From an uncultured Candidatus Saccharibacteria bacterium (lineage in GTDB: Bacteria > Patescibacteriota > Minisyncoccia > Phycocordibacterales > CAIZLB01): DNA of 64,000 nucleotides. Positions 16,126 through 55,837 of the stretch are shown one piece after another (the first letter of the stretch is position 1; every line of letters begins with the position of its first letter). The notes under the pieces are model-generated. The model was not told where the DNA came from and made no database searches. It was given only the letters and a program-made list of their open reading frames with translations. The DNA is taken from NCBI GenBank assembly GCA_964620475.1, contig CAZUJN010000001.1, positions 4,651 to 68,650 on the forward strand, in the 5' to 3' direction. The translations under genes were made by a program, and so were the position numbers.

Positions 16126-16217
16126 TGGCGGAGACGGAGGGATTCGAACCCTCGGGACCCTTTTAAAAGCCCACCTCTTTAGCAAAGAGGCACATTCGAC
16201 CACTCTGACACGTCTCC
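16126..16217 (-). tRNA. tRNA-Ser (anticodon GCU), CCA encoded
   Basis: Reverse complement reads GGAGACGTGTCAGAGTGGTCGAA...CCTCT-TTGCTAA-AGAGG...long variable arm...GGGTTCGAATCCCTCCGTCTCCGCCA; 92 nt. Confidence 0.85.
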
Positions 16218-16320: not shown

Positions 16321-16512
16321 ATGGAATTATTTGGACTAGGAGTACCTGAAATCACTTTAATATTAGTAGTCTTTCTGGTTTTTTTTGGAAAAGACAAACT
16401 TCCTGAACTTGCAAGGAGTATAGGAACATCTTTCAAAGAACTTAAGAAAGGTTTTAGTACAGAAGCTGACTCAAAAGAAAAGACTGATGACAATACAAAA
16501 AAATCAAAATAG
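16321..16512 (+). CDS. tatA: Sec-independent (twin-arginine) translocase protein TatA/E
   Basis: MELFGLGVPEITLILVVFLVFFGKDKLPELARSIGTSFKELKKG is the TatA signature. Confidence 0.9.
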   Translation: MELFGLGVPEITLILVVFLVFFGKDKLPELARSIGTSFKELKKGFSTEADSKEKTDDNTKKSK

Positions 16513-17221
16513 TGATTTGAGTATATTGGAGCATATTATAGAACTTAGGAATAGAATAATTCTATGCGTGCTAGTTATTATTATTGGTTCAGCTATCGCT
16601 CATTTTTTTCATGAACAAATTATTAGTTTTATTTTAAAACCTATCGATGGGCAAAAACTTGTATTCCTTTCCCCTCTTGATCCTTTATTTTTTATTTTGA
16701 AAATTGATTTAGTAGTTGGAATTTTAATATCATTACCTATTATAGTTTGGTCTGTATTTTCATATATAAAACCGATTATAACAAATAAGCTCAACTATTT
16801 GATACATGTTATATATTTATCATCAACCTTATTAGTTTTGACGGCTCTTGGTTATGCATATTTTATAATAGTACCGCTTATATTAAAGTTTTTATCATCA
16901 ATCACAATCCCTGGAATAGAAAGTGCTATTACAGCTCAAAACTATCTTAGTTTTTTTATTACACAAATACTCATAATCACACTTGTATTTCAAATTCCTT
17001 TATTTATTATTCTTGGAATTTATATAGGAGTTTTTAATACAAGATTATTGGGCTCAAAACGAGGTTATATATATGTTGGTATGACTATAGTACTTTCAAT
17101 ACTAACACCGACACCAGACATATTTAGTCTTGGTATTATTCTAATTCCCGCTTTATTTATATTTGAAATAAGTTTAATTATAGGTAGAATTGTAGAGAAA
17201 TTTAAGAAGAAGAAAATTTAG
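16487..17221 (+). CDS. tatC: Twin-arginine translocase subunit TatC
   Basis: 244 aa, six TM helices, LEHIIELRNR start typical of TatC; overlaps tatA end. Confidence 0.85.
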   Translation: MTIQKNQNSDLSILEHIIELRNRIILCVLVIIIGSAIAHFFHEQIISFILKPIDGQKLVFLSPLDPLFFILKIDLVVGILISLPIIVWSVFSYIKPIITNKLNYLIHVIYLSSTLLVLTALGYAYFIIVPLILKFLSSITIPGIESAITAQNYLSFFITQILIITLVFQIPLFIILGIYIGVFNTRLLGSKRGYIYVGMTIVLSILTPTPDIFSLGIILIPALFIFEISLIIGRIVEKFKKKKI

Positions 17222-17299
17222 ACCCAAACCACGCGAACAAAAAAAACAGCACTTACTCGAAGTGTTGTTTTTTTATTATTGATGAGACCTTGTTTATAA

Positions 17300-19234
17300 T
17301 TATCTACCAATAGCTGCCAAGAATGTATCAACCCGAGCTTTAAATGCAACAATTTCATCTGTTGTAAGCGTTGAACCCGCTGCTGCTATTTTCAAGTTTG
17401 CATTACTATAGTTCAATGTAGTTCCGTTTCCGTTCAATGCCAACAAAAACAGATTGTGTGTTGACCTCCCTGTTGGAACAGAAGCATAACTGTTTGTCCA
17501 AGCATTATGACCTGCCAGTGTGGTTGTTCCGTTAGTTATGTTTACATATGAATGTCCCGCAAAGTTTGATACCGGTTGTGTAAACGTTGAACCTGTATTA
17601 TTCTCGTTAGCTCTAAATCGTATGTATTCAGTTCCACCTGGCTTATAACTATCAATAATCGAACGAGCAACACCGTTAGTCACCGCCCCTATAAATACAC
17701 CATTATCGGTTGGATCAACTGTACCATTTTTTAGATAAATAAACTGATCGTTTGTCCCACCAAAATCTGATGGCTTAAGTCCTGTATTACCGTAGGCATC
17801 TGTACCGTTACCTGTCACACCATTCGCGTCGTGTGTTGGGTTACCGGACCAAGTTATGTTATAAACACCTTTCAAATCCTTGCTTTGTGTTGTTCCCGTT
17901 GTTCCTTCAAATGTCCATATAGCAGCCAGCTTTGACCAGAGCCCGTCAGTTTTAAGTCCTGTAACAAAGTTATTGTATGCTGTCTGTCTTGCTGGATCCG
18001 TAACACTTGCAGCAGAAATAAATGCTGCAGCATCAGAATCAACTGCACCAGTGTAATTTAGATTGGCTTTCCAATAAATATAACTACCGTCATAATACCA
18101 TTCTAGAATATCTACAGCATCCGGAGCAGAAGATAAAGTTATAATACCGTTTCCGCCGTTAGGTGTTTTACTTCCACCTGGTAGAGTTAATGTCCTTGAA
18201 CCGTTTGAGTCTTGTGTCACGATCAATTTTCCACTCATCCCCTCTATCAATCCACTGAATGTCAAAGTTCTATTTCCTCCAAGTGTCACTTTGGCATTTT
18301 GACTATTATGAAATTTAGTTACTACCCAAGTTATAACAATGTCATCTGTTAGTGTTTGAAATGATGGATTAGTACCATTTGACCAGACACCTCTCTTACT
18401 GAAAGTAACCATATCAGCACCAGTAATCACACCGTTAGTAGTATTGTAACCACCATTTGCACCAGTAACTGTTCCTTTATGAAAGAATCTTAACTCTGTG
18501 TCATCACCTGATTGGTCAACAGGTACTGCTTGCCACTGAATACTGTTATCAACTTCGATCAACCGTGTTGCTGTTCCTGTTCCGCTTCCTGCACCTGTTG
18601 CAACGAATCTAACCCCGACAGTGTTTGATGATGCACCGATCGCGGTGAAATCAGTTGTACCTATAGTTTTGATTATGTAAGTGTATGGTGTTGGTGGTGC
18701 AAAAACAAAACTACCAGCATTAACCGGAGAACCGGTCTCCACAAGCGACTTCGTCTGCATCGATATAGCTTTTGAAGTCTTTTTAGGGTCGGTCACACTA
18801 GTCGCACCAGACACCATATGCAAATAGTTAGCATCACGAACGGAAGCGTTGTTACCAAACTGAACAGGTCCAGGAGCGATGATAGCCATACGCCAAGCCA
18901 AGTTAAAGATTAACTCACCGCCGACACCATCGTGACCTTCCCACATATAGATGTTGGTACCGGGTGCTCCTGTTCTTGTCAACCAAGTTATACCTTGCAT
19001 ATCAGGTATGTATATATTACCCACACCACCGAAAGCAGCTGAGTTTTCTGGGTTAGTCCAATCACCTGTTATCAAATTCCCATCTGCATTAAATTGTGGT
19101 ACCTTTAATGAACCTCCGTTTTGAGAAATATCAAATTTAAGGGTACCGTCTGTGTTATGTGATACCGATAAATATTCATTTAGTATTCCTCCCCATGTTC
19201 CTGAATCATCTCCTACATTAGGTAGTCTTGGCAT
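17300..19234 (-). CDS. Gly/Thr/Asn-rich beta-rich protein, phage tail-fibre / receptor-binding-like; compositionally atypical (markedly higher GC than surroundings); no signal peptide
   Basis: 644 aa; GC visibly ~40+% vs ~28% background; repetitive TGT/NGT beta-strand motifs; C-terminal ...TTDEIVAFKARVDTFLAAIGR. Confidence 0.4.
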   Translation of the reverse strand: MPRLPNVGDDSGTWGGILNEYLSVSHNTDGTLKFDISQNGGSLKVPQFNADGNLITGDWTNPENSAAFGGVGNIYIPDMQGITWLTRTGAPGTNIYMWEGHDGVGGELIFNLAWRMAIIAPGPVQFGNNASVRDANYLHMVSGATSVTDPKKTSKAISMQTKSLVETGSPVNAGSFVFAPPTPYTYIIKTIGTTDFTAIGASSNTVGVRFVATGAGSGTGTATRLIEVDNSIQWQAVPVDQSGDDTELRFFHKGTVTGANGGYNTTNGVITGADMVTFSKRGVWSNGTNPSFQTLTDDIVITWVVTKFHNSQNAKVTLGGNRTLTFSGLIEGMSGKLIVTQDSNGSRTLTLPGGSKTPNGGNGIITLSSAPDAVDILEWYYDGSYIYWKANLNYTGAVDSDAAAFISAASVTDPARQTAYNNFVTGLKTDGLWSKLAAIWTFEGTTGTTQSKDLKGVYNITWSGNPTHDANGVTGNGTDAYGNTGLKPSDFGGTNDQFIYLKNGTVDPTDNGVFIGAVTNGVARSIIDSYKPGGTEYIRFRANENNTGSTFTQPVSNFAGHSYVNITNGTTTLAGHNAWTNSYASVPTGRSTHNLFLLALNGNGTTLNYSNANLKIAAAGSTLTTDEIVAFKARVDTFLAAIGR

Positions 19235-19486
19235 TTTTTGTGTTTTTTAAATTTAAATTAATATTTACTAATTATCTTAATAATACTTTATATTAAACCC
19301 TAAGGCAAACTTGTTTGCTCTGAAAATATATACCGTGATATACTTTTTATATGTTAGACAAAAAAATCACTCGAAAACAATTTATTTTATCCGGACTTTC
19401 ACTTTTTGGAATACTTTTGATGAATAAAATACCTAAAAACATTGTTACTAACAATAAAACAAATAACTCTTATGGGGTAAGTACAT

Positions 19487-20584
19487 ATGGTGGTAAATAA
19501 TTTTTTAAAAGTCTTTTTTATATCTCTTTGTTTTACAATATCTTTACCTGTATTTGCCGACACTTACGGGGAGGGTTTATATGGATCAGGTAGATATTCT
19601 GGAGACAATTCGACAACAACAGTACCGAATGCACCAACATCTGTTATTGCTACCGCTGGGAATTCTCAAGCAAGTATATCTTTTACACCACCAGCAAATA
19701 ATGGAGGGGCAGCTATAACATCTTACATCGTTACATCTTCACCTGGTAACACAACTGCAACAGGTCTAACCTCACCCATTATTGTCACAGGACTTACAAA
19801 TGGCACATCTTATACTTTTACAATAGTAGCAATAAACTCTGTAGGAACATCGTCACCTTCAGCTGCATCAAACAGCATCATACCCATTGTTCCATCCAAC
19901 ACACAGTCAAATAATTCAAGTTACGGTGGTGGCGGTAGTACATCTGGATCATCTTACAATGTTGCAACAAACGCTCCAACAACACCAGTAGTAGTTGATC
20001 AAACCGTTAATCAGGTGACACAAAACACACAAAACAATTTATCTATTTTTAATTCAAACCTAACATTTGGTGCAATAAGTACCGAGATTCAAAACCTACA
20101 AAAGTTTTTGAATAAAAACGGATTCACAATATCATCATCAGGACCTGGATCTATTGGAAATGAAACAAATAAATTTGGACCTGCAACAAAAGCAGCATTA
20201 ATAAAGTTCCAAATAGCTAATAAGATATCACCTGCAATTGGATATTTTGGACCTATTACACGAGCATTAGTAAATTCTATATTGGAATTGGATTTAAACC
20301 TTAAAAAACCAACAGATACACAGAGTACAACAGCACCTTTATATACAAGAGATTTGGATTTAAACACATTAGGTGATGATGTTAAAGCATTACAACAGTT
20401 TCTAAATAAAGAAGGTTTTCTTGTATCAATATCAGGACCTGGATCTATTGGAAATGAAACAAATAAATTTGGACCTGCAACAAAAGCAGCATTAATAAAG
20501 TTCCAAATAGCTAATAAGATATCACCTGCAATTGGATATTTTGGACCTATCACTAGATCTGTTGTAATAAATAAATCAAAATAA
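19487..20584 (+). CDS. Secreted protein: signal peptide + fibronectin type III domain + two tandem peptidoglycan-binding (PGBD-like) repeats
   Basis: FN3-like PNAPTSVIATAGNSQASISFTPP...GGAAITSYIV; two near-identical units ...LQKFLNKNGF...GPATKAALIKFQIANKISPAIGYFGPITR. Confidence 0.65.
   Translation: MVVNNFLKVFFISLCFTISLPVFADTYGEGLYGSGRYSGDNSTTTVPNAPTSVIATAGNSQASISFTPPANNGGAAITSYIVTSSPGNTTATGLTSPIIVTGLTNGTSYTFTIVAINSVGTSSPSAASNSIIPIVPSNTQSNNSSYGGGGSTSGSSYNVATNAPTTPVVVDQTVNQVTQNTQNNLSIFNSNLTFGAISTEIQNLQKFLNKNGFTISSSGPGSIGNETNKFGPATKAALIKFQIANKISPAIGYFGPITRALVNSILELDLNLKKPTDTQSTTAPLYTRDLDLNTLGDDVKALQQFLNKEGFLVSISGPGSIGNETNKFGPATKAALIKFQIANKISPAIGYFGPITRSVVINKSK
20140..20555. repeat. Internal tandem repeat: ~119-bp identical core (20140-20258 and 20437-20555), period ~297 bp, encoding duplicated PG-binding domain
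   Basis: Identical protein segments SGPGSIGNETNKFGPATKAALIKFQIANKISPAIGYFGPI in two copies; minus-strand shadow ORF also duplicated. Confidence 0.8.
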
Positions 20585-22183: not shown

Positions 22184-22274
22184 GCGGAAAAGTGCTAGAG
22201 AGGTTGAATAGGTCGCTCTCGAAAAGCGATATGGAGGAAACTCCATCGAGGGTTCGAATCCCTCCTTTTCCGCT
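22184..22274 (+). tRNA. tRNA-Ser (anticodon CGA) with long variable arm
   Basis: GCGGAAA acceptor / D-arm GTGCTAGAGAGG / anticodon stem-loop TCGCT-CTCGAAA-AGCGA / variable arm TATGGAGGAAACTCCATC / T-arm GAGGGTTCGAATCCCTC / TTTCCGC. Confidence 0.8.
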
Positions 22275-22393
22275 ATTTTTACAAAAATCTAGAATCAAAA
22301 AATCCGTAGGATTTTTGGGATTCGAAAAGGTTTTATGTATTTTCGAGAATTTGAAAAATTTAAGAAAATATAAAACCTATACTGACCTCGTAG

Positions 22394-22416
22394 AGGTCGA
22401 ATCCCTCCTTTTCCGC
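22394..22416 (+). repeat. Direct repeat: truncated copy of the 3' end of tRNA-Ser(CGA) (gaggtcgaatccctccttttccgc), 120 bp downstream of the intact tRNA; att-site-like scar
   Basis: 19-nt exact match cgaatccctccttttccgc plus flanking near-match to tRNA T-arm/acceptor. Confidence 0.7.
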
Positions 22417-22917: not shown

Positions 22918-22953
22918 AGGACCGCCTCCCCTATGATGGGGTGGCGGTTTTTT
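22918..22953. terminator. GC-rich bidirectional terminator (accgcctcccc-tatga-tggggtggcggt + T7)
   Basis: Strong hairpin with T-run; overlaps the stop of the convergent minus-strand gene. Confidence 0.65.
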
Positions 22954-23503
22954 TCTTGCCGTATCGAGGAACAAGATTGCCGACTTGTGTTGAGATAAAA
23001 TTTTCAGTAACTTCATCATGTTTGGCTAATTGAAATTCCATCTTAACTCCAAGAGTAAGAACTTTAGGAAAGAAATACACGCGAGCTCTTCCACGCAAAA
23101 TCGCAGATTGATTGTCGAACTCAGGTATCTCCCTAAGTCGACTCATGATTTCTTTTACAGAAGATTTGTTTATACCCTGTATCTTATGCATGGCGGTCTC
23201 CGACAATATAGCCAACTGCCACAGACTATGAAAACCTGCAGACTGAAGAGTTTTGTTAACCCGTGAAGGGAAATTAAACCACAACAAAGAATCGAACAAA
23301 TGATCATCCAGAGTGGACAGACTCATTGCCTTGTCCAAGGTTGTACGCTTACCTTTTTTGGTTACACTGAATTCAACCTTGGCATCGCCGGTAGCGTCAG
23401 TCTTTATCCTTTTGATAGCAAGCTCATATCCAGGATTTAGATCTCCGGCAAGATAAACCGCGATCAGATTATTAAACACATGGTTTGGAATTGTTCTTTT
23501 CAT
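22931..23503 (-). CDS. Hypothetical protein, compositionally atypical (higher GC); possible helix-hairpin-helix DNA-binding segment; start uncertain (ORF-track start 23572, likelier Met at ~23503)
   Basis: LSETAMHKIQGINKSSVKEIMSRL resembles an HhH motif; no confident family assignment. Confidence 0.35.
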   Translation of the reverse strand: MKRTIPNHVFNNLIAVYLAGDLNPGYELAIKRIKTDATGDAKVEFSVTKKGKRTTLDKAMSLSTLDDHLFDSLLWFNFPSRVNKTLQSAGFHSLWQLAILSETAMHKIQGINKSSVKEIMSRLREIPEFDNQSAILRGRARVYFFPKVLTLGVKMEFQLAKHDEVTENFISTQVGNLVPRYGKKKTATPS

Positions 23504-23558
23504 ATAAGGGTGTGAATGTGCTACACATAAAAATACCACACCCTCACACAAAATCAAC

Positions 23559-24725
23559 CTACACCTTAACACTCATAGCCACTTTCTTCATCACCCTTTT
23601 ATCAAAAGGTTTTGGTATAACGTAGTCTGCTTTTAATTCTTTTTTATTTATCAAACTTGCCAATGCATAAGCTGCCTTTATTTTCATATCATCAGTTATA
23701 CTTTTTACACCAGCATCAAGTGCGCCACGAAATATTCCAGGAAATACAAGCACGTTATTAATCTGATTTGGATAATCAGATCTACCTGTGGCAAATATTT
23801 TTATGTCTGCTTTTTTTGCATTTTCAAAACTTATTTCTGGATTTGGATTAGCCATAGCAAATACTATTCTATTTTCATTCATGGTTTTAACCCATTCTAC
23901 TTTCAAGACATCAGCCTTTGACACACCTATAAACACATCAGCGTTCTTCAAAGCATTTTCTAATCCTCCTTTTATATTTTCTTTATTTGTTATTTCAGCT
24001 AATTCTAATTTATATTTATTTAAATCAGTTCTATCTTTATTCAAAGTATCCACAGAATCTAAGACAATCATCTTATTTGGATTCACTCCAGCTTTTATTA
24101 AAAGTTTTGCTATAGCTAATGCTGCCGCCCCTGCCCCGTTTATAACTATTTTTATATTTTTCAAATCTTTCTTAACCAACTTGAGCGAGTTTATAAGCCC
24201 AGCTAAAACTACTATAGCTGTTCCATGCTGATCATCATGAAATACTGGTATATCGAGTTCTTTCTTTAATCTCTCTTCTATCTCAAAACATCTTGGAGCA
24301 GATATATCTTCTAGATTTATACCACCGAAGACCGGAGCTATGTTTTTTATAGTTTTAATTATTTCTTCTGTATCTTGTGTATTTAAACATATTGGAAATG
24401 CATCTATGTTTGCAAAATTTTTAAACAAAACAGCTTTACCTTCCATAACCGGTATAGCAGCTTCTGGACCAATATTTCCAAGTCCGAGCACCGCTGAACC
24501 GTCCGAGATCACCGCAACAGTGTTAGCTTTTATGGTATGAGTATATACAGACTTTTTATCTTGATGTATAAGACGACATACTTCTGCAACACCTGGAGTA
24601 TATGCTACCGATAAATCTTCTTTGTTTTTAGTCTTTACTTTTGAGACAACCTCAAGTTTACCTTTATGTTTTTTGTGTAGACCTAGGGATAATTTTTTGT
24701 AGTTTTTTGAAGATTTTGTGGGCAT
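23559..24725 (-). CDS. NAD(P)-dependent malic enzyme (short form)
   Basis: LSVAYTPGVAEVC, dinucleotide-binding VINGAGAAALAIAKLL, 388 aa. Confidence 0.85.
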   Translation of the reverse strand: MPTKSSKNYKKLSLGLHKKHKGKLEVVSKVKTKNKEDLSVAYTPGVAEVCRLIHQDKKSVYTHTIKANTVAVISDGSAVLGLGNIGPEAAIPVMEGKAVLFKNFANIDAFPICLNTQDTEEIIKTIKNIAPVFGGINLEDISAPRCFEIEERLKKELDIPVFHDDQHGTAIVVLAGLINSLKLVKKDLKNIKIVINGAGAAALAIAKLLIKAGVNPNKMIVLDSVDTLNKDRTDLNKYKLELAEITNKENIKGGLENALKNADVFIGVSKADVLKVEWVKTMNENRIVFAMANPNPEISFENAKKADIKIFATGRSDYPNQINNVLVFPGIFRGALDAGVKSITDDMKIKAAYALASLINKKELKADYVIPKPFDKRVMKKVAMSVKV

Positions 24726-36759: not shown

Positions 36760-37428
36760 TTAATTTTGAACAACTGTCACTTTTATGCCCACAGACACAA
36801 GACGAAACAATTGAACACCAGCGGGTTCAGACACCCTGATACAACCACGGGATGCAAAGGACAGGTCACCACAATGGATGTATATACCGCGATCTTTAGA
36901 TACAAGTAACGCTTTGGGCATTCTTGCACCTTTGATTTCACGAGATACATGTAGGGACTCCTTGTCGGAAATGGTATAATCTCCTGCACTGATCTGCCTG
37001 TGTTCACCCTCTCTCTCTGAGGTTTGGCAGCGAACCCTACCCATGATTTCACCTTTACCAAAACAGATGATTTCACCTTTTCCGTTGGTATCAAAGGAGA
37101 TTTTAAGGGTGTCAATCGCTGCACCGACAACAAAAAAGCTTGATTTTGTCGACATTGCCTTTGTCACAAGGTTTTTATCAACCTTCCACAGAAACTCTGC
37201 GAAGGTCTCTTTGTCGACCATTTCCTGGAGATCCAGTTTATCAACCTTACCCCAGTTCTTTTGGAGGATAGAGACAACAGCCTCTTTGGAATATTTTCCC
37301 TTGTCCTTTCCGGACCACCCCCACTCAGCTTCATCGCCACCAAAAGTGGAAACTTGTGCAAAACAAGAAGAGGCAAAGGCGGCAAAAAACATGAGAAAAG
37401 CGAACAGAAGTTTTTGAGATGTGTTCAT
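36760..37428 (-). CDS. Secreted L,D-transpeptidase (YkuD-fold) domain protein; GC-rich relative to genome
   Basis: Signal peptide; catalytic motif IYIHCGDLSFASRGCIRVSEPAG (His...Cys of L,D-TPase). Confidence 0.65.
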   Translation of the reverse strand: MNTSQKLLFAFLMFFAAFASSCFAQVSTFGGDEAEWGWSGKDKGKYSKEAVVSILQKNWGKVDKLDLQEMVDKETFAEFLWKVDKNLVTKAMSTKSSFFVVGAAIDTLKISFDTNGKGEIICFGKGEIMGRVRCQTSEREGEHRQISAGDYTISDKESLHVSREIKGARMPKALLVSKDRGIYIHCGDLSFASRGCIRVSEPAGVQLFRLVSVGIKVTVVQN

Positions 37429-37592: not shown

Positions 37593-38054
37593 TCAATTGA
37601 GTCCAGGTTGGTACCTGGTTATTGCAAAACCACCAGGTTGACCGAAGCTAGAAGGCCTTAGGCTGCACCCTTGCTGAGAGTACAAACCCTGTGCGGCACT
37701 AGTCAGCTGACCCTGAGAAGGCCACCTTCCTGTGCGACGAAACACCCCCTCGGCATAATCTTCAAGCCCTGCCCTTACGTTGTTGGTGGCACCTTGTGGA
37801 GCATCGCCCGAAACCTCAATATAGGCACGGCGGTTCACGGTGTGGGCTTGGCGGGTATAACCGCTAACTTGAGGTTCACCCCCGCCATACGGGTTATACC
37901 CGCGGTAGGGGTTGTAACCCATATATTGTTGAGGGCCCTGGAAACCAGGATATGGAGGTTGTGCACCCACCGGACCATATTGGATCGGCGGCACACATGA
38001 AGTGGTGATGAAGGCAAACAGAGAGACGGCGATAGAGGAGACGATGGTTTTCAT
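37593..38054 (-). CDS. Secreted/lipoprotein-like Pro/Gly/Tyr/Gln-rich protein; GC-rich relative to genome
   Basis: Signal peptide with possible lipobox (ITTSC); no catalytic motif. Confidence 0.4.
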   Translation of the reverse strand: MKTIVSSIAVSLFAFITTSCVPPIQYGPVGAQPPYPGFQGPQQYMGYNPYRGYNPYGGGEPQVSGYTRQAHTVNRRAYIEVSGDAPQGATNNVRAGLEDYAEGVFRRTGRWPSQGQLTSAAQGLYSQQGCSLRPSSFGQPGGFAITRYQPGLN

Positions 38055-48816: not shown

Positions 48817-50130
48817 TTAGATTTCGTATTTCCACAAACTTAAAGAGTTTTTATCTTGAAACAATAAGTATTTGTTTGTATTTGATATTTTAATTTTATA
48901 TATATCTATGGAATTACTTACCATGTCTTGTAATGGAATTATTAATTTAAACTCACCGTTTACTGGATTTATTGACCAGATATTATCTGTAAATTCTATA
49001 TTATTTTTATACCAAGCCTCTGGGTAAGGTGCTTGATATAGTTTTTGTGGTATACCACAGAAAATAAGTTTAGAGTCGTTTGACCAAACACATTTATCTA
49101 CTATTGTTGCCTGTGATAAATATGTGTTTGTTTTTGATTTTATATCATAAATAAACGTTTCCAATGTGTTATTTATTATTTCATTATATATAACCTTTTT
49201 ACCATCAGGAGATACTAATGTATTAAATCCATACTTCTCACCTATTATATAAGTGTTTTTACCTTTACCATCAGGGTTTAAAAAGAATAAATACCCAGGA
49301 AAATAAGCACTTGGTTTTGTTGTTAAAGCTATTGTTGTTTTGTTTACATATTGAGATAACCACTCTGATAATACAGTATTTAATACATTTGTTCTTACTC
49401 CACCATCAAAACTAGATAATACACCTGTACCGGTATTATTTATAAAATAAAACAACCTTTTTGTTTCTTTTGATAAAGATAAGTTTGATGAACTTATATT
49501 AATATTACCCACATTTGCATTATATAAAGTTGAGGTTGCTGTATCTTTTATTAGTTTTAAATATGTTGTTGATATTGTCTCGTTGTCATCAGAAACCTTT
49601 CTGATTATTGCTGATATATTGTCTATAAACAAAACTTCTTCTGCCCCTATGAGTGTGAAGTAGGATAGCTTGTTTAAATCTGTTGTAGAGGCCAAATTTT
49701 CGTAAATATTACCTGTTTTCCTATCCCATAAGTATATGAATTCTTGATTCTTATAAATTTTTTTGTTTTTTATAGCCTGAATTACACTTGTTGTGGAATT
49801 ATTTGTGGAGGTAGCGACTTCTTCTATATCTTTATAAACAAAATCAAAACCACTAACAGGTTCTTTCCATATTTGTACTAATTTAGTTTTTGTTGTGTTA
49901 GTTGTTGGATTTTCTACAGATTTTTCATCACCTTCTTGTACATCATTTGACTGTGTTGATGTTGAGACTCTGGTTTGAAAAGGTGTTCTTGTTGGGTTTG
50001 TGTTTGTAACAGTGTTGTAATCAGATAAGTCACCTTGTGACACTTTATAGAATTTATATCCAAAATAAACTCCAAGACCAAATATGATTATAATTAATAT
50101 TATTATTGTTTTTTTGATTATATTTTGCAT
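48817..50130 (-). CDS. Membrane-anchored (N-terminal TM) beta-propeller-like protein (TolB-like PDGK repeats); last gene of the T4SS-like locus
   Basis: 437 aa; N-terminal TM IIILIIIIFGLGVYFGY; repeated ...PDGKxxxY... motifs. Confidence 0.4.
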   Translation of the reverse strand: MQNIIKKTIIILIIIIFGLGVYFGYKFYKVSQGDLSDYNTVTNTNPTRTPFQTRVSTSTQSNDVQEGDEKSVENPTTNTTKTKLVQIWKEPVSGFDFVYKDIEEVATSTNNSTTSVIQAIKNKKIYKNQEFIYLWDRKTGNIYENLASTTDLNKLSYFTLIGAEEVLFIDNISAIIRKVSDDNETISTTYLKLIKDTATSTLYNANVGNINISSSNLSLSKETKRLFYFINNTGTGVLSSFDGGVRTNVLNTVLSEWLSQYVNKTTIALTTKPSAYFPGYLFFLNPDGKGKNTYIIGEKYGFNTLVSPDGKKVIYNEIINNTLETFIYDIKSKTNTYLSQATIVDKCVWSNDSKLIFCGIPQKLYQAPYPEAWYKNNIEFTDNIWSINPVNGEFKLIIPLQDMVSNSIDIYKIKISNTNKYLLFQDKNSLSLWKYEI

Positions 50131-50147
50131 TTTATGTTTTTATTATA

Positions 50148-51341
50148 TTATGGATTTGAAATCTGCGCCCTTGCGGTTCCAAATGTTATATTCCATTGAC
50201 CGGCCGGTATGTTCTTTAAGACACTATTACTACCTATTGTTCCGTTTTCATCGTATATGTCTATTGTATTTGCAAACATTATTCCGTTATAAGAAGAGGC
50301 TGTTGCGTCTTCATAAAAACCAACACATGTTCCGTTTATAAAAACAGCTTGACCTGTTGATGGTCTGTATTTTGATATTAAATCAGGTGAAAGAGCTACT
50401 GAACCTTCTCTTAATAAATTATTTGCATTACCTCTTCTTTGTGCTGTGTTTGAATCCGTAATCGAATCTTTTGTTGCACTATACACAGTAACAACAAGTC
50501 TACCATCTGTTGATCTTACTCCGTTTGGTAAGCTTCTTATAAAATTTTCAGCACCAGATTCGGTCCAGCCAAAAACTGAGTTAAACATTGGGTTGTCTGT
50601 AGGGTTTCCTGTGTAAGGTATATTAGGTATTCCGTTGTTTGGAAAACTCCACCCAGGATTTTGATTTAAAACAGCATCTATACCACTAATGTTCCCTACC
50701 CAACTTGATGTTGCTACTGTTAAAACCTGATTTATACCTTTTTGTATTGATTTATCTACATCTATCTCAGATGGATTAAAATCAAACTCAACAAGCTTTT
50801 TATTAACTGTATACAATATTGTGTATGACAACAGACCTAAACCTAAAGCAATGAAACTGTTTGTTAATCTCTTCTTGGCCGCACCTTTTTTACCTACAGC
50901 TTCCTCTGTCATGTATTGTATACCTGATACAGCTATACTTATTACTGTTAACATTATTATTACAGTTATACCAACAGTAAAAAGCATTTTAACTATATCT
51001 TCTGTAGCGTTTGATACATTAACACAGGTTACATTTGGATTCTGTTTACTTTTTGTTAAAGATGAACCTATACCAGGAAAAGAGGTGTCTATACCTGAAA
51101 AAGGTTGATATTGCTTATCTTTTACATAATTACAATCTTTAGATGTAAACAACATTTGAACCAAAGTTTTTTGTTGTTCTGGTGCTGTTGGTGTTATGGA
51201 TGATCCTGGTGTTGTGGCAGGTTGAAGATTTGCAACACCACCTGGAATATTGGTGTTTGTTGGAAGATTAACAGCCGCTGAAACAGATATTGTTGTTAAA
51301 AATATTAGTATATATACTAGAGTGAATAATTTTTTATTCAT
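50148..51341 (-). CDS. Cell-wall hydrolase paralogue A: shared N-terminal module (signal peptide + two TM helices) + C-terminal 3D/MltA-like (Asp-rich double-psi beta-barrel) domain
   Basis: N-terminal 233 aa identical to next gene; C-terminal VALSPDLISKYRPSTGQAVFINGTCVGFYEDATASSYNGIMFANTIDIYDENG resembles 3D-domain motif. Confidence 0.55.
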   Translation of the reverse strand: MNKKLFTLVYILIFLTTISVSAAVNLPTNTNIPGGVANLQPATTPGSSITPTAPEQQKTLVQMLFTSKDCNYVKDKQYQPFSGIDTSFPGIGSSLTKSKQNPNVTCVNVSNATEDIVKMLFTVGITVIIMLTVISIAVSGIQYMTEEAVGKKGAAKKRLTNSFIALGLGLLSYTILYTVNKKLVEFDFNPSEIDVDKSIQKGINQVLTVATSSWVGNISGIDAVLNQNPGWSFPNNGIPNIPYTGNPTDNPMFNSVFGWTESGAENFIRSLPNGVRSTDGRLVVTVYSATKDSITDSNTAQRRGNANNLLREGSVALSPDLISKYRPSTGQAVFINGTCVGFYEDATASSYNGIMFANTIDIYDENGTIGSNSVLKNIPAGQWNITFGTARAQISNP

Positions 51342-51342
51342 A
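50641..51342. repeat. Copy 1 of ~702-bp direct repeat (identical 5' gene module)
   Basis: Identical translations in two frames (main ORF and shadow ORFs 50821..51108 / 52109..52396) imply nucleotide identity. Confidence 0.85.
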
Positions 51343-51378
51343 TCTAGATTATATCAAATTATTATGAGAGTTTGTATT

Positions 51379-52629
51379 TTATACTTTCTGACAAGATCTA
51401 TAAACATAAGTTTGTAGTCTCTTTTGTAGGTTATAATAACTAAACCACGATTGTGGTGTGAAGTGATCATCAACCATAGCCTGAGATGAACTGTTTGAAA
51501 CTATTTTACCTGTGCTTGTGTATATACCAACATGACCATGATTTGTTCCAACTGTTGGTGAGATTATTATATCTCCTGGTGTTGCTGCTGAAGGGTCTTG
51601 GCTCACCATACAAAAATAAATACTTGATGATAATGCATTGTTCATATCTATGGTGCTTTTTCCGTATGTATCCTCATCTCTTGTTATTGGCATACCCAAA
51701 GCTTTGTTTATAATATCATTCACAACAAAAGCACAAGCTAAAGCGCCACCAGATGTACCAGTATAATTACATGTCTTTGTACCAAGCATGTCTAAGGCCT
51801 CTTGATTTATTCTTTGGGCTGCCAATGTGTTTATTGATCCAGAACCAAAACCTGCTGTTGGTATTCCTCCTGAAAATGGATTGTTCGGGTTGGTTATTGA
51901 ACCTGGTGTTGTCGGTAAACCTCCTGAAGGAAAACTCCACCCAGGATTTTGATTTAAAACAGCATCTATACCACTAATGTTCCCTACCCAACTTGATGTT
52001 GCTACTGTTAAAACCTGATTTATACCTTTTTGTATTGATTTATCTACATCTATCTCAGATGGATTAAAATCAAACTCAACAAGCTTTTTATTAACTGTAT
52101 ACAATATTGTGTATGACAACAGACCTAAACCTAAAGCAATGAAACTGTTTGTTAATCTCTTCTTGGCCGCACCTTTTTTACCTACAGCTTCCTCTGTCAT
52201 GTATTGTATACCTGATACAGCTATACTTATTACTGTTAACATTATTATTACAGTTATACCAACAGTAAAAAGCATTTTAACTATATCTTCTGTAGCGTTT
52301 GATACATTAACACAGGTTACATTTGGATTCTGTTTACTTTTTGTTAAAGATGAACCTATACCAGGAAAAGAGGTGTCTATACCTGAAAAAGGTTGATATT
52401 GCTTATCTTTTACATAATTACAATCTTTAGATGTAAACAACATTTGAACCAAAGTTTTTTGTTGTTCTGGTGCTGTTGGTGTTATGGATGATCCTGGTGT
52501 TGTGGCAGGTTGAAGATTTGCAACACCACCTGGAATATTGGTGTTTGTTGGAAGATTAACAGCCGCTGAAACAGATATTGTTGTTAAAAATATTAGTATA
52601 TATACTAGAGTGAATAATTTTTTATTCAT
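51379..52629 (-). CDS. Cell-wall hydrolase paralogue B: shared N-terminal module + C-terminal CHAP (Cys/His-dependent amidohydrolase/peptidase) domain; VirB1/PrgK-like function inferred
   Basis: C-terminal TGTSGGALACAFVV...GDIIIS...GHVGIYTSTG is a CHAP-domain pattern (catalytic Cys then His). Confidence 0.6.
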   Translation of the reverse strand: MNKKLFTLVYILIFLTTISVSAAVNLPTNTNIPGGVANLQPATTPGSSITPTAPEQQKTLVQMLFTSKDCNYVKDKQYQPFSGIDTSFPGIGSSLTKSKQNPNVTCVNVSNATEDIVKMLFTVGITVIIMLTVISIAVSGIQYMTEEAVGKKGAAKKRLTNSFIALGLGLLSYTILYTVNKKLVEFDFNPSEIDVDKSIQKGINQVLTVATSSWVGNISGIDAVLNQNPGWSFPSGGLPTTPGSITNPNNPFSGGIPTAGFGSGSINTLAAQRINQEALDMLGTKTCNYTGTSGGALACAFVVNDIINKALGMPITRDEDTYGKSTIDMNNALSSSIYFCMVSQDPSAATPGDIIISPTVGTNHGHVGIYTSTGKIVSNSSSQAMVDDHFTPQSWFSYYNLQKRLQTYVYRSCQKV

Positions 52630-52630
52630 A
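51929..52630. repeat. Copy 2 of ~702-bp direct repeat
   Basis: See copy 1; 586-bp unique spacer between copies. Confidence 0.85.
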
Positions 52631-52633
52631 TTC

Positions 52634-53635
52634 TTATTTGTTTGTGTCTATGATATACAATATGTCTTTTGATTGTAGTATTGAGTTTTGGTTTTTTATT
52701 TTTATAGAAAGTTTAGATAATTCATCATCCTTCTTTTTTCTAAAAGATAACTCATTTGATGAATTTTTTATTTGTACATCATTTATATACCAACTATATA
52801 TTGTTGCTAAAGTTGAGTTTATTCCATAATAGAATGGATATGATACTATGGTTGCTTCGTTTTTACTTAATCTAAATTGAGGCTTGATTGTTTTGTTGAA
52901 TAATATTCCTAATAAAGGACTTTTTTCATAACTAATAATTTCTGTATCTAATGTTGGTATTCTTAATATAGCCTCATTGTTGTATGTTTTTGTTACAGTA
53001 TCTTTGTATGAATTTAATGCTGAAACAACCACACTAAATAAAGGCTCTTTTTTTAAGATATCACCTTTGTATGAAAAAGATGAATAACCAGCACCCGAAA
53101 CACTTCCTTTAACAACACCATCAACGCTCCACTTATAATTATTATATGTGTTTGTTAAAGGATTTTCTTGATCAAGGTTTATGGCATTTAGAATAATAGA
53201 TGATTCTGGTGTATACATTGATTTTCCTTTATAAAAAGGTGGTGTATAAGTTCTTGATTCCCATATTAATATAATTTTTTTAGGATCAAATACGAATTGT
53301 TTTTGTATTTTTGAACCATAATTTGTTGTAATCTCTAAATCAACCGTACTTTTTTTATCCAACACAAAATTTATTTTATTTAAACCCACACCAGATTTAA
53401 ATGATTTGTTGTTGATTTTCCAATCAAAAGCGGAATCAGAAATATTTGTACCATACATTTCTGCTGATATTGTGATTGTGTCACCTATGTTTGGTCTTTC
53501 TGGGTAAATATTAAAATATGTTTTCTCTTCTAATTCTGAAAAGTTTTCGGGCCCTGTTGCAGCATATGTATTTGAGGTTAAAAAATAGAAAAAAACTATT
53601 ATAAATATAAGTATAGATTTATAATTTAAATTCAT
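52634..53635 (-). CDS. Secreted hypothetical protein of the T4SS-like locus
   Basis: 333 aa; signal peptide SILIFIIVFFYFLTSNTYA; beta-rich. Confidence 0.4.
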   Translation of the reverse strand: MNLNYKSILIFIIVFFYFLTSNTYAATGPENFSELEEKTYFNIYPERPNIGDTITISAEMYGTNISDSAFDWKINNKSFKSGVGLNKINFVLDKKSTVDLEITTNYGSKIQKQFVFDPKKIILIWESRTYTPPFYKGKSMYTPESSIILNAINLDQENPLTNTYNNYKWSVDGVVKGSVSGAGYSSFSYKGDILKKEPLFSVVVSALNSYKDTVTKTYNNEAILRIPTLDTEIISYEKSPLLGILFNKTIKPQFRLSKNEATIVSYPFYYGINSTLATIYSWYINDVQIKNSSNELSFRKKKDDELSKLSIKIKNQNSILQSKDILYIIDTNK

Positions 53636-53654
53636 AAATTAATTATAACAGACT

Positions 53655-54029
53655 TTAATCTGAATAATAAGTAAAAAACACATTTGCTGTTATACAAGGT
53701 AGATTTCCTATAACTGGTATACCCTCCCCTAATGCAGTAAACGCCATTGATGTTATTTTTGTTAAATCACTAACTTTTAAAATACCAGAAAAAGCAAACC
53801 AAGGTATAAAAATTACTAAACTTAATATAGAGAATGCTATACCAACACCCGGAATCTCACTTAAAAAGAAACTAAACAAATCTAAAACAACAGCAACTAA
53901 AACCATACATATAAAATTTAATGTCACCCCTTTTTTTAAAAGGTTTTGACCTGCATTTACTGCTTGGGTTGCTTTGTTTGCTGGGTTTAATCTCTCTACC
54001 CTGCTTGGTGTTGCTAATTGTGTAGCCAT
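53655..54029 (-). CDS. Small membrane protein with two hydrophobic helices (VirB2/VirB3-like candidate)
   Basis: 124 aa; overlaps VirB4 stop by 16 nt; no motif. Confidence 0.35.
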   Translation of the reverse strand: MATQLATPSRVERLNPANKATQAVNAGQNLLKKGVTLNFICMVLVAVVLDLFSFFLSEIPGVGIAFSILSLVIFIPWFAFSGILKVSDLTKITSMAFTALGEGIPVIGNLPCITANVFFTYYSD

Positions 54030-55837
54030 TCTTTATTTTTGTCTTTATTAGCATTAGCTAATAATTCTTCTGGGTTAGATGTAATAATGTCATGTTCTGT
54101 TCCTGATGATACAACTTTTAATGCGACGTGTTTTTGACCGGCGAAGAATATACCCTCTCCAACCCCGGACTCCAATAATAAATATTTTTCCTCATCTGTA
54201 AGATTGAATGTCTTTTGAACCATATCTATGGATGAAGGTGATTGTTTTAAAAGAAATTGCATAGATGAGTTTGTTATGATTGGTAGACCATAAGGAGATC
54301 TCAAGAAATCTTCAACATCTTGGGTTATTGTTGAAATACCTAAATAGTATTTACGACCTCTTTTTGCCAATCCAAACAAGAACGAGGCTGTATCTTCAGA
54401 TTTCATCATATACCATGCCTCATCAACAACCAAAAGCCTCTTTTTCAACTCTTTTCTAACAAGATTCCATATGTGATGCATAACTATATACATAGCCACA
54501 GGTTTTAATTCTTCTTCCATATCTCTAAGTGAAAAAACCACAAGCTTTTTGTTTATGTCTAGGTTAGATGGTTTATTTATAAAGCCAGACCAAGTACCTT
54601 TTGTATATTTTGTAAGCCTTTGTACAAGCGACTCTCCTCCCTCCATACCAGCTAATACAAGTTCAAAATCAGACATAAGCGGTGGTTCTATTGCAGCAAA
54701 ATTTGATTCTGGGGTTATGTCTTTAAGTGCATATGTTTCTGTTATTGCTCTATCTATAACAGAATCCTCTTCTGGTGTAAGTCCTCCAAGCATAAGCCTA
54801 AACAACCCTACTAGATTTACTATATGTGATCTTAAAACATCTGCTGGAGACTCATCTTCTCTTGGTACAGGAAGATCGAACGGGTTGATGTGGTTTTCTG
54901 AAGTAAGTGATATGTTAAAATATCTACCACCAAGTGTTTCGGTCATTCTCTCATATTCTCTTTCGGGGTCTAGAACTATAACATCAACATCAAACATTAA
55001 AGATCTCAATATTTCTAATTTTGTTGCGTATGATTTACCTGAACCAGACTTTGCAAAAGTTACTGAGTTGTAGTTTTCAAGCGAAAATCGATCAAATAAC
55101 ACTAAACCGTTGTTGTGTCTGTTTAAACCATATAAAATACCTTTATCTGATGTTAAATCAAAAGATATAAAAGGAAATATACTTGATAATGGTGCAGAAT
55201 TTAGTTTTGAATGCACAGCCATCTCATCAGTTGCTACAGGTATAGTTGTTTTGAAACCTTGTTCTTGTTGAAATAGTGATGGTTTTATAAATACAAGTGA
55301 AGCCTCAAGTGTTGATTTTATTTCTGATTCAACTTTGTTTAATTCTTCTTCGCTATCACCGTATACTGATATATATATTCCCACATCAAATATTTTCTCT
55401 TGTGCTTGTTGTAAATTATCACGCAGCTGCTCTAAGTTTTGATAAGATGCATCAAGTTGAGGGTCACGAACCAAACCTTTTTCCTCTCTATCGTTTATTT
55501 GACTTTGAACTTCTGCAACTTTCTTTTTGAATTCGTTTAATATAACTGATGTATCTATAGGGTGTACAAATATAGAAACATCAAAAGCTTTATCTAGATT
55601 TATTATAGGAGAAAACCAAGAGTCTGAAAGGTATTTTGGGTATGACATGACGAAGAAGCTTCTAACTAGCTTCTCCCCTAAATTAAGGGTCTTGGGACTT
55701 ATTTTTAGTGCAGAGGGTGCGATAATGTCTTTTAATTCTAATACCGCAGATCTATAAATATCTTTCGGTAATATAGAAGTTATTTGTTGAGTTTTGTTTG
55801 TGTTGTTTTTTGGTTTTAAAAAATCTAGAAATCCCAT
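54014..55837 (-). CDS. VirB4/TrbE/PrgJ-family type IV secretion ATPase
   Basis: Walker A FAKSGSGKSYAT, Walker B LLVVDEAW, length 607 aa typical of Gram-positive VirB4. Confidence 0.85.
   Translation of the reverse strand: MGFLDFLKPKNNTNKTQQITSILPKDIYRSAVLELKDIIAPSALKISPKTLNLGEKLVRSFFVMSYPKYLSDSWFSPIINLDKAFDVSIFVHPIDTSVILNEFKKKVAEVQSQINDREEKGLVRDPQLDASYQNLEQLRDNLQQAQEKIFDVGIYISVYGDSEEELNKVESEIKSTLEASLVFIKPSLFQQEQGFKTTIPVATDEMAVHSKLNSAPLSSIFPFISFDLTSDKGILYGLNRHNNGLVLFDRFSLENYNSVTFAKSGSGKSYATKLEILRSLMFDVDVIVLDPEREYERMTETLGGRYFNISLTSENHINPFDLPVPREDESPADVLRSHIVNLVGLFRLMLGGLTPEEDSVIDRAITETYALKDITPESNFAAIEPPLMSDFELVLAGMEGGESLVQRLTKYTKGTWSGFINKPSNLDINKKLVVFSLRDMEEELKPVAMYIVMHHIWNLVRKELKKRLLVVDEAWYMMKSEDTASFLFGLAKRGRKYYLGISTITQDVEDFLRSPYGLPIITNSSMQFLLKQSPSSIDMVQKTFNLTDEEKYLLLESGVGEGIFFAGQKHVALKVVSSGTEHDIITSNPEELLANANKDKNKEWLHN

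Follow-up and report, generated by a model that had tools for sequence, protein, structure and literature searches.

The window analysed here is a 64,000-nucleotide (nt) stretch from an uncultured Candidatus Saccharibacteria bacterium (contig CAZUJN010000001.1, positions 4,651 to 68,650), and it represents core chromosome, with dnaA/dnaN, genes for ribonucleotide reductase, PBP1, malic enzyme, a type IV pilus ATPase, and RecG and FtsH homologues, as well as type IV secretion-like genes, a tmRNA, and four tRNAs. It also carries a gene for a 644-amino-acid (aa) fibre-like protein, which was originally predicted from the sequence to be a GC-rich tail-fibre or receptor-binding-like gene, placed between tatC and a gene for a secreted FN3/peptidoglycan (PG)-binding protein and acquired horizontally, for example as a prophage remnant. 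The position is borne out, and we show that this is a fixed chromosomal gene under purifying selection and not a prophage remnant. Open reading frames (ORFs) and other features at the locus are as follows.

16321-16512, plus strand: tatA (Pfam TatA_B_E), convergent with the fibre-like gene
16487-17221, plus strand: tatC (Pfam TatC), convergent with the fibre-like gene
17240..17274, no strand assigned: hairpin between the convergent tatC and fibre-like genes, a 15-pair stem followed by a T-run in a consensus scan, possibly a bidirectional terminator
17300..19234, minus strand: fibre-like gene, a complete single ORF of 644 aa with its stop codon at 17300-17302
19351..19500, plus strand: small ORF of 49 aa, divergent from the fibre-like gene and overlapping the start codon of the FN3/PG-binding gene
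19487-20584, plus strand: FN3 and PG_binding_1 gene with a signal-peptide-like N-terminus, on the other flank from tatC

Domains and composition of the fibre-like protein

Domain boundaries are taken from a family alignment of ~20 full-length relatives together with an AlphaFold2 monomer model built from 21 sequences, with a mean predicted local distance difference test score (pLDDT) of 81. From the N-terminus, the parts are these.

19127..19234, minus strand: N-terminal module (head or adaptor domain), residues 1-36, MPRLPNVGDDSGTWGGILNEYLSVSHNTDGTLK
18755..19126, minus strand: beta-rich core part 1, residues 37-160, conserved in ~20 full-length relatives, with an STxGGAxKVPQ motif
18560..18754, minus strand: inserted mini-domain of ~55 aa, residues ~161-225, ...YIIKTIGTTDFTAIGASSNTVGVRFVATG..., common to ~80 proteins
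18365..18559, minus strand: beta-rich core part 2, residues 226-290, from the family alignment, with modelled strands at 221-284
18050..18364, minus strand: immunoglobulin-like (Ig-like) beta-sandwich, residues 291-395, GGNRTL...GMSG...VTQDxxGSRTLTLP, with viral matches
17939..18049, minus strand: two-helix linker, residues 396-432, DSDAAAFISAASVTD...LKTDGLW, with modelled helices at 400-409 and 414-429
17303..17938, minus strand: ConA-like lectin domain of the LamG or carbohydrate-binding module (CBM) type plus a terminal helix, residues 433-644, a jelly roll at 433-620 and then the helix

The C-terminal domain is a jelly-roll beta-sandwich that superposes on known members of the ConA-like lectin/LamG fold, and it invariably comes after the two-helix linker in relatives; in the model it is presumed to be the ligand-binding tip. 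Identity to ConA-like/LamG modules such as AbnA domain 4, sialidase CBM40, the lectin-like subdomain of clostridial neurotoxins, and the lectin of the PilC minor pilin is only 7-14%. A Pfam search at E <= 1 returned no family for the fibre-like protein, including Laminin_G_3 and CBM, PHROGs (E <= 1) and NCBIfam profile searches were likewise empty, and a PDB search using the family profile matched no solved structure by sequence. Precomputed matches to PF26209 (Phage_phiTE_241_C) are present on homologues (faint for the homologue P0005), and phrog_17104 is matched by phage relatives at 1e-5 to 1e-11, but the query itself has no match to either at E <= 1. A pectate-lyase-type tailspike, which had been suggested, is not supported for this protein, as there is no Pectate_lyase_3, Beta_helix, or other Pfam match and no beta-helix in the model.

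The original description of the product as a Gly/Thr/Asn-rich protein of 644 aa, beta-rich and lacking a signal peptide, holds well: Gly and Thr each make up 12.6%, Asn 8.5%, and Ala 8.2%, with Lys, Ile, and Glu scarce and zero Cys, the AlphaFold2 model is rich in beta structure, and the N-terminus has no hydrophobic stretch. Its account of composition stands only in part. The gene is indeed GC-rich (41.2%), but the context is not ~28% GC as proposed but ~32% (31.6% for the window, with a 51-ORF mean of 32%). The GC values per codon position are 0.46/0.50/0.28, and redrawing the codons of the gene from the window's own usage gives an expected GC content of 38.6%, so ~70% of the GC excess reflects amino-acid composition rather than the many G/C-ending codons that had been proposed. 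There is a real but modest excess at third codon positions (GC3 of 0.281 versus 0.208 expected; z = 4.8), yet this ranks the gene only fourth of 50 window ORFs, and three window ORFs are compositionally more deviant. The raised GC3 maps to residues 37-225 (0.32-0.37, with the top value within the gene, 0.37, in core part 1) and to the lectin domain (0.29); the N-terminal module, spanning the first 36 codons, has a native GC3 of 0.17.

Phage relatives of the modules

All modules of the fibre-like protein turn up again in phage tail proteins. Full-length homologues with 33-37% identity are located in phage tail-morphogenesis and lysis modules, with the order tape measure, homologue, endolysin, and integrase at one comparison locus (L006), and tail lysozyme-like protein, a 2071-aa protein, tail-fibre N-terminal protein, minor tail protein, homologue, and endolysin at another (L003); at a third (L007), tape-measure or tail genes come first and the homologue is followed by an endolysin. 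Viral structure matches for the protein number 306, with a best E value of 1e-22. An exhaustive family search returned 6,551 cluster representatives at E <= 1e-3, including 101 at E <= 1e-30, and a tblastn search against 50,697 cultured-phage records gave two weak partial matches only.

The individual modules have wide distributions of their own. IMG/VR viral contigs contain 282 confirmed matches to the Ig-like module (40-59% identity), and the module is also the C-terminal domain of shorter proteins carrying the N-terminal module (N-module) at L112 and L115. The inserted mini-domain is 55-84% identical to parts of ~80 proteins, often with two to four copies each and with 11 matched stretches in one representative, and its carriers include Peptidase_S74, pectate-lyase, K1-lyase_C, and Phage-tail_3 proteins as well as a virion protein of cyanophage S-TIM54. 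We considered these ~80 short, high-identity matches as relatives of the N-terminus and rejected them, as mapping places them on the internal insert (residues ~165-225); because of this mapping, the SU10-adaptor context of L123, and L124, bear on the mini-domain only. A Baseplate_wedge match on protein P0107 was also set aside as a clue to the N-terminus, being unrelated.

The N-terminal module itself is 49-64% identical to the start of tailspike or fibre proteins on 19 IMG/VR contigs with 45-70% GC. At L130 and L135, the N-module gene is directly after the tape-measure gene, and these contigs also encode major head and major tail proteins. Its partners in phages are pectate-lyase, GH5, or polysaccharide-deacetylase domains, and the conserved module is thus found with exchangeable distal domains: a lectin in the window, a beta-helix at L127 and L130, GH5 at L133, and a deacetylase at L134. 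Because homologues reside in phage modules, the structure matches are viral, and the modules recur in tail proteins, the parts of the fibre-like gene are very likely phage-derived and horizontal in origin. The same three lines of evidence support the tail-fibre or receptor-binding-like reading.

Chromosomal setting and the Tat neighbourhood

Orthologues with 75-86% identity occupy the same slot between tatC and the FN3/PG-binding gene at L002 and L004, with cellular genes only, as in the window; the gene is therefore syntenic in three genomes, and the ORF is intact in all orthologues. The 86%-identical orthologue is from an uncultured Candidatus Saccharibacteria metagenome-assembled genome. 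Ratios of nonsynonymous to synonymous substitutions (dN/dS) were calculated by the Nei-Gojobori method for the window paired with L004 and with L002. For the fibre-like gene, dN/dS is 0.09 versus L004 and 0.13 versus L002, ranging from 0.04 to 0.17 across domains with the minimum (0.04) in core part 2, at dS of 0.9-1.3; these values are similar to those of tatC (0.12-0.14) and the ferric reductase gene (0.13). With ORFs intact and dN/dS as for tatC, we see no relaxed selection or decay of the gene.

No other phage genes (structural, lysis, or integrase) are present among the annotated ORFs of the window, and there are no flanking att repeats, integrase, or residual phage genes beside the fibre-like gene. 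Thus, of the original view of horizontal acquisition, the phage derivation of the parts is very likely, but the prophage remnant is contradicted by synteny in three genomes, by purifying selection, and by the lack of other phage genes in the window. The opposing possibility raised at the time, that homologues would prove to be conserved cellular proteins of the Candidate Phyla Radiation (CPR), is half realised, in that the orthologues and the N-module family are conserved chromosomal genes of Patescibacteria.

The gene had also been placed near a tRNA-Ser att-like scar. Genes for tRNA-Ser at 16126-16217 (gct) and 22186-22273 (cga) bound a 6-kb block, with their 3' ends pointing outward, away from the fibre-like gene. 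The tRNA-Ser(cga) gene is followed 143 nt later by a ~25-nt copy of its own 3' end (22392-22416), an att-like scar with nearly adjacent repeats that is outside the block holding the fibre-like gene. In the sister genomes, large serine recombinase islands begin just past tRNA-Ser(gct), on the far side of tatA. The tRNA-Ser gene and partial copy are therefore nearby as described, but their link to the gene fails, since the 3' ends face away and the islands are past tatA. The variable island at L002 (12977-19824) codes for an OLD-family nuclease, a large serine recombinase, and DNA methyltransferases, and that at L004 (9686-14631) for a serine recombinase and bAvd, a diversity-generating retroelement (DGR) accessory gene; the window genes at the island site are unrelated (DUF3592, methyltransferase, NUDIX, and nitroreductase). 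We rejected the fibre-like gene as a DGR target, as the window has no repeat of the gene elsewhere, no paralogue, and no reverse transcriptase ORF. Between 16321 and 24725, dS versus L004 is mosaic, at 0 for the cyt-b5 gene, 0.05-0.39 for the next four genes, 0.53-0.61 for tatC/tatA, and 0.89 for the fibre-like gene, and therefore points to recombination or allele exchange around the locus.

The association with genes of the twin-arginine translocation (Tat) system extends beyond the window. The N-terminal module is 50-81% identical in seven Patescibacteria lineages (the window clade and six others), and five of these (the window clade, L122, L125, L127, and L147) have it adjacent to tatAC, in four gene arrangements. 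At L122, a 142-aa N-module gene and a 671-aa gene are divergent from tatA, as is the N-module gene at L147; at L125/L126 the order is tatA, tatC, a 73-aa ORF, a frameshifted N-module gene, and a gene for a GDPD protein; and at L127 it is tatA, tatC, a 62-aa ORF, and three tandem N-module genes. TatC is only 21-33% identical between two groups of loci. Counted from the other side, an N-module gene is within a few genes at five of eight loci with tatAC and the small ORF, and a metagenome scan with TatC for the empty site returned one locus. The adjacency is far above chance in a genome of ~1,000 genes, with the provisos that the lineages are not fully independent and that the tatA flank is an island hotspot in some. 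None of the tat-linked head-module genes encodes a signal peptide, and the N-terminus of the fibre-like protein (MPRLPNVGDDSGTWGG...), with one Arg and no hydrophobic stretch, is not that of a Tat substrate. In the other six lineages, the 8-10 kb around the N-module genes contain no structural, lysis, or integrase genes.

A small ORF also accompanies tatAC. In the window, its 49-aa product combines a Tat-signal-like T-R-K-Q-F-I motif and a hydrophobic stretch with the tail SYGVSTYGGK at its C-terminus, and all five tat-linked lineages have a small ORF whose product pairs a [T/D]-R-x-x-F-[L/I] motif with a hydrophobic stretch and ends in a YGxxxYGG tail; a regular expression for this signature found no other occurrence in 2.2 Mb of fetched loci, mostly viral. 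A profile of the small ORF collects ~100 proteins of 49-77 aa, and the family is already catalogued, since its members score 48-108 bits against NCBIfam NF038009 ("twin-arginine translocation system-associated protein"). The window ORF matches weakly (E = 0.007; 16.6 bits versus a cut-off of 100) and, judged from its sequence, is a divergent member of this Tat-associated family, shortened and positioned beyond the fibre-like gene from tatC. The small ORF is in the tatA-tatC cluster in eight of eight lineages examined, directly downstream of tatC in six, and four further members examined are all directly downstream of tatA-tatC. The searchable literature holds nothing on the function of NF038009 or on fibre-like neighbours.

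Several other observations concern these loci. The three N-module genes at L127 (6344-10135) code for 599 aa, 590 aa, and a 44-aa stump, and their first 130 nt are 90-99% identical as DNA, with unrelated upstream DNA and divergent distal parts, a pattern suggesting that the head module undergoes gene conversion or cassette exchange; a shufflon or inverted cassette was rejected, as the products of the downstream minus-strand ORFs are secreted or sortase-type and unrelated. The database also contains at least 14 different ORFs (P0114-P0127), 39-70 aa long, that are made up of just the N-module and stop soon after it. The single example looked at, the short ORF at L125 (10001-11115), is a +1 frameshift into a normal fibre-repeat ORF, and an alternative genetic code is unsupported there. 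These short ORFs may be pseudogenes, assembly errors, or a recombination-prone junction, and the short length of the N-module matches may partly reflect the candidate choice of the search tool, which did not return the full-length copies at L127. A sortase gene is just upstream of tatA-tatC-NF038009 at four Saccharimonadales loci (L127 3999-4586, L148 5599-6186, L149 5525-6100, and L150 5538-5915), and L127 also encodes a nearby protein with an LVNTG cell-wall sorting-like C-terminus, which suggests a wider envelope-assembly neighbourhood. In the window, the FN3/PG-binding protein continues past its predicted signal peptide with DTYGEGLYGSGRYSG, resembling the tail of the 49-aa ORF, and its gene contains an internal direct repeat of 177 nt (20097-20273 and 20391-20567, 89% identical) that probably corresponds to the two PG_binding_1 matches.

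Possible roles of the fibre-like gene

We hold, at about even confidence, that the fibre-like gene codes for a phage receptor-binding protein that has been domesticated, probably as a surface fibre that binds glycans, with a possible link to the Tat system. The protein is a mosaic of tail-fibre and tailspike modules, in which a 36-aa head is followed by a beta-rich shaft with its mobile mini-domain, then by the Ig-like sandwich and the two-helix linker, and finally by the ConA-like tip. As in phage receptor-binding proteins, the head would serve to dock the protein, likely a trimer, to a partner, and the distal lectin domain would bind a cell-surface glycan, most plausibly on the envelope of the epibiont's host. 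More speculatively, the folded fibre could reach or stay at the surface with help from the Tat system or the small NF038009 partner, perhaps as a hitchhiker or by docking; we propose this because the head-module genes adjoin tatA-tatC and NF038009 in five lineages and are without signal peptides. Glycan-binding envelope proteins are essential for the epibiotic growth of a cultured Saccharibacterium (PMC10633639). We consider it doubtful that the scheme extends to Patescibacteria at large, such that phage receptor-binding proteins have been repurposed as surface fibres that are exported or anchored folded by Tat/NF038009, with a 35-aa head for docking and swappable tips that set glycan specificity.

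Several points weigh against a domesticated surface fibre. The protein has neither a Sec nor a Tat signal that would take it out of the cytoplasm, and the head module is also found in phages, where no Tat role is possible, such that its conservation may reflect docking to a phage-type partner. At three of the eight tatAC loci, a fibre gene is missing from the surrounding 8 kb, and the N-module genes at L112 and L115 are among ordinary neighbours with no tat genes within 10 kb. The tatA flank is an integration hotspot in the sister genomes, and island traffic could explain part of the adjacency. Our view of the genome is 64 kb, and a prophage or tailocin elsewhere is possible; trimerisation and sugar binding are read from a monomer model of 21 sequences.

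Alternatively, the protein could be a virion or tailocin fibre that belongs to a prophage, to a defective phage, or to a tail-like particle encoded elsewhere, assembled in the cytoplasm and released by lysis, with its position by tatAC incidental. Virion proteins likewise have no signal peptide, a head module that matches real phage tailspike starts (49-64% identity) and has a dN/dS of 0.06-0.17 fits docking to a tail or baseplate, and the readable genome is 64 kb only. Nonetheless, we think this quite unlikely, given that structural, lysis, and integrase genes are missing from the window and from within 8-10 kb of the N-module genes of the other six lineages, that fibre genes apart from tail modules are unusual and these genomes small, and that repeated tatAC adjacency is left without explanation. 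That adjacency could instead arise if tatAC flanks gather phage-derived genes and the fibre-like gene is a moron-type passenger, acting for example in superinfection exclusion or receptor masking, without any Tat mechanism. This would fit the serine-recombinase islands after tRNA-Ser(gct) by tatA at L002 and L004, the rve-family integrase upstream of tatA at L125, the frameshifted copy at L125 and truncated copy at L127, the raised GC3 of the distal domains, and the recombination indicated by a dS versus L004 of 0.89 for the gene and 0-0.39 for genes 1-5 kb away. However, tatAC separates the gene from the tRNA integration site, no repeats flank the gene, the adjacency recurs where TatC is 21-33% identical and the flanking genes differ, and selection on the gene equals that on housekeeping genes; we therefore regard hotspot cargo as unlikely.

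An anti-phage decoy, in which a host-encoded fibre enters infecting virions or blocks the receptor and cuts infectivity, strikes us as highly improbable. The match of the head module to real phage tailspikes would suit it, as would the faster evolution of the fibre-like gene relative to its neighbours (86% versus 94-100% identity at L004) and the scarcity of CRISPR in CPR bacteria (PMC9166423), but dN/dS shows no diversifying selection, and no adjacent defence genes are seen in the window, for which the PADLOC library was not searched.

For a domesticated surface fibre, the nearest class of known systems is that of lectin- or CBM-tipped phage fibres and tailspikes, such as the cyanopodophage Pan3 tailspike gp15 (PDB 9vyh), CBA120 TSP2, and the phage J-1 Dit with its CBM2. 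Unlike these, the window gene is alone in the core chromosome, without tail, baseplate, or lysis genes, and within a Saccharibacteria clade it keeps its position and evolves under purifying selection. PblA and PblB of Streptococcus mitis phage SM1 are tail-fibre proteins without a signal peptide that act as bacterial surface adhesins; they are encoded by an intact prophage and reach the surface via phage-mediated lysis. They are thus a precedent for a signal-less fibre as an adhesin, whereas the window gene has no prophage and has Tat machinery nearby. SEML1_0890 and SEML1_0891 of Southlakia epibionticum are lectin-like and FN3 proteins with a proposed role in binding glycans of the host cell, and epibiotic growth requires them (PMC10633639). 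The window gene is like them in its lectin tip and FN3/PG-binding neighbour, a likeness by description; they are not described as phage-derived, and the window gene is unlike them in having no export signal. Our literature search found no description of the fibre-like gene or its cluster. Phage-like receptor-binding proteins, ConA-like tips, and NF038009 are already known, and what appear to be new in the searchable literature are a family of lone fibre-type genes kept under selection in Patescibacteria chromosomes and its recurrent association with the Tat operon.

To our knowledge, host-cell recognition and attachment by ultrasmall epibiotic bacteria are largely unknown, with type IV pili and a small number of glycan-binding proteins implicated so far. 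The fibre-like gene is a concrete candidate for a host-range determinant, because purifying selection keeps this phage-derived gene for a lectin-tipped fibre in a reduced genome, and because the family to which it belongs has exchangeable distal domains. The Tat system of these organisms has few predicted substrates, and the repeated position by tatA-tatC/NF038009 suggests a Tat job, a route by which a folded, signal-less protein could reach the surface. If the Tat link is coincidental, the gene still stands as a clear example of how one phage structural gene has been domesticated.

Elsewhere in the window, two minus-strand ORFs (36760-37428 and 37593-38054) have 44-55% GC and GC3 values of 0.43-0.50 (z = 8.8 and 10.5 versus expectation) and may be recently acquired DNA; one of them weakly matches YkuD and DUF5675. 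A 213-aa minus-strand ORF at 22931-23572 with an RNA polymerase alpha C-terminal-like domain also has a raised GC3 (0.38; z = 6.6), and its copy at L004 is 96% identical. The type IV secretion-like cluster (48817-55837, minus strand) is a few kb from dnaA/dnaN and includes a TraG/VirB4-like ATPase, two proteins weakly matching type IV secretion system pilins, and an NlpC/P60 domain.

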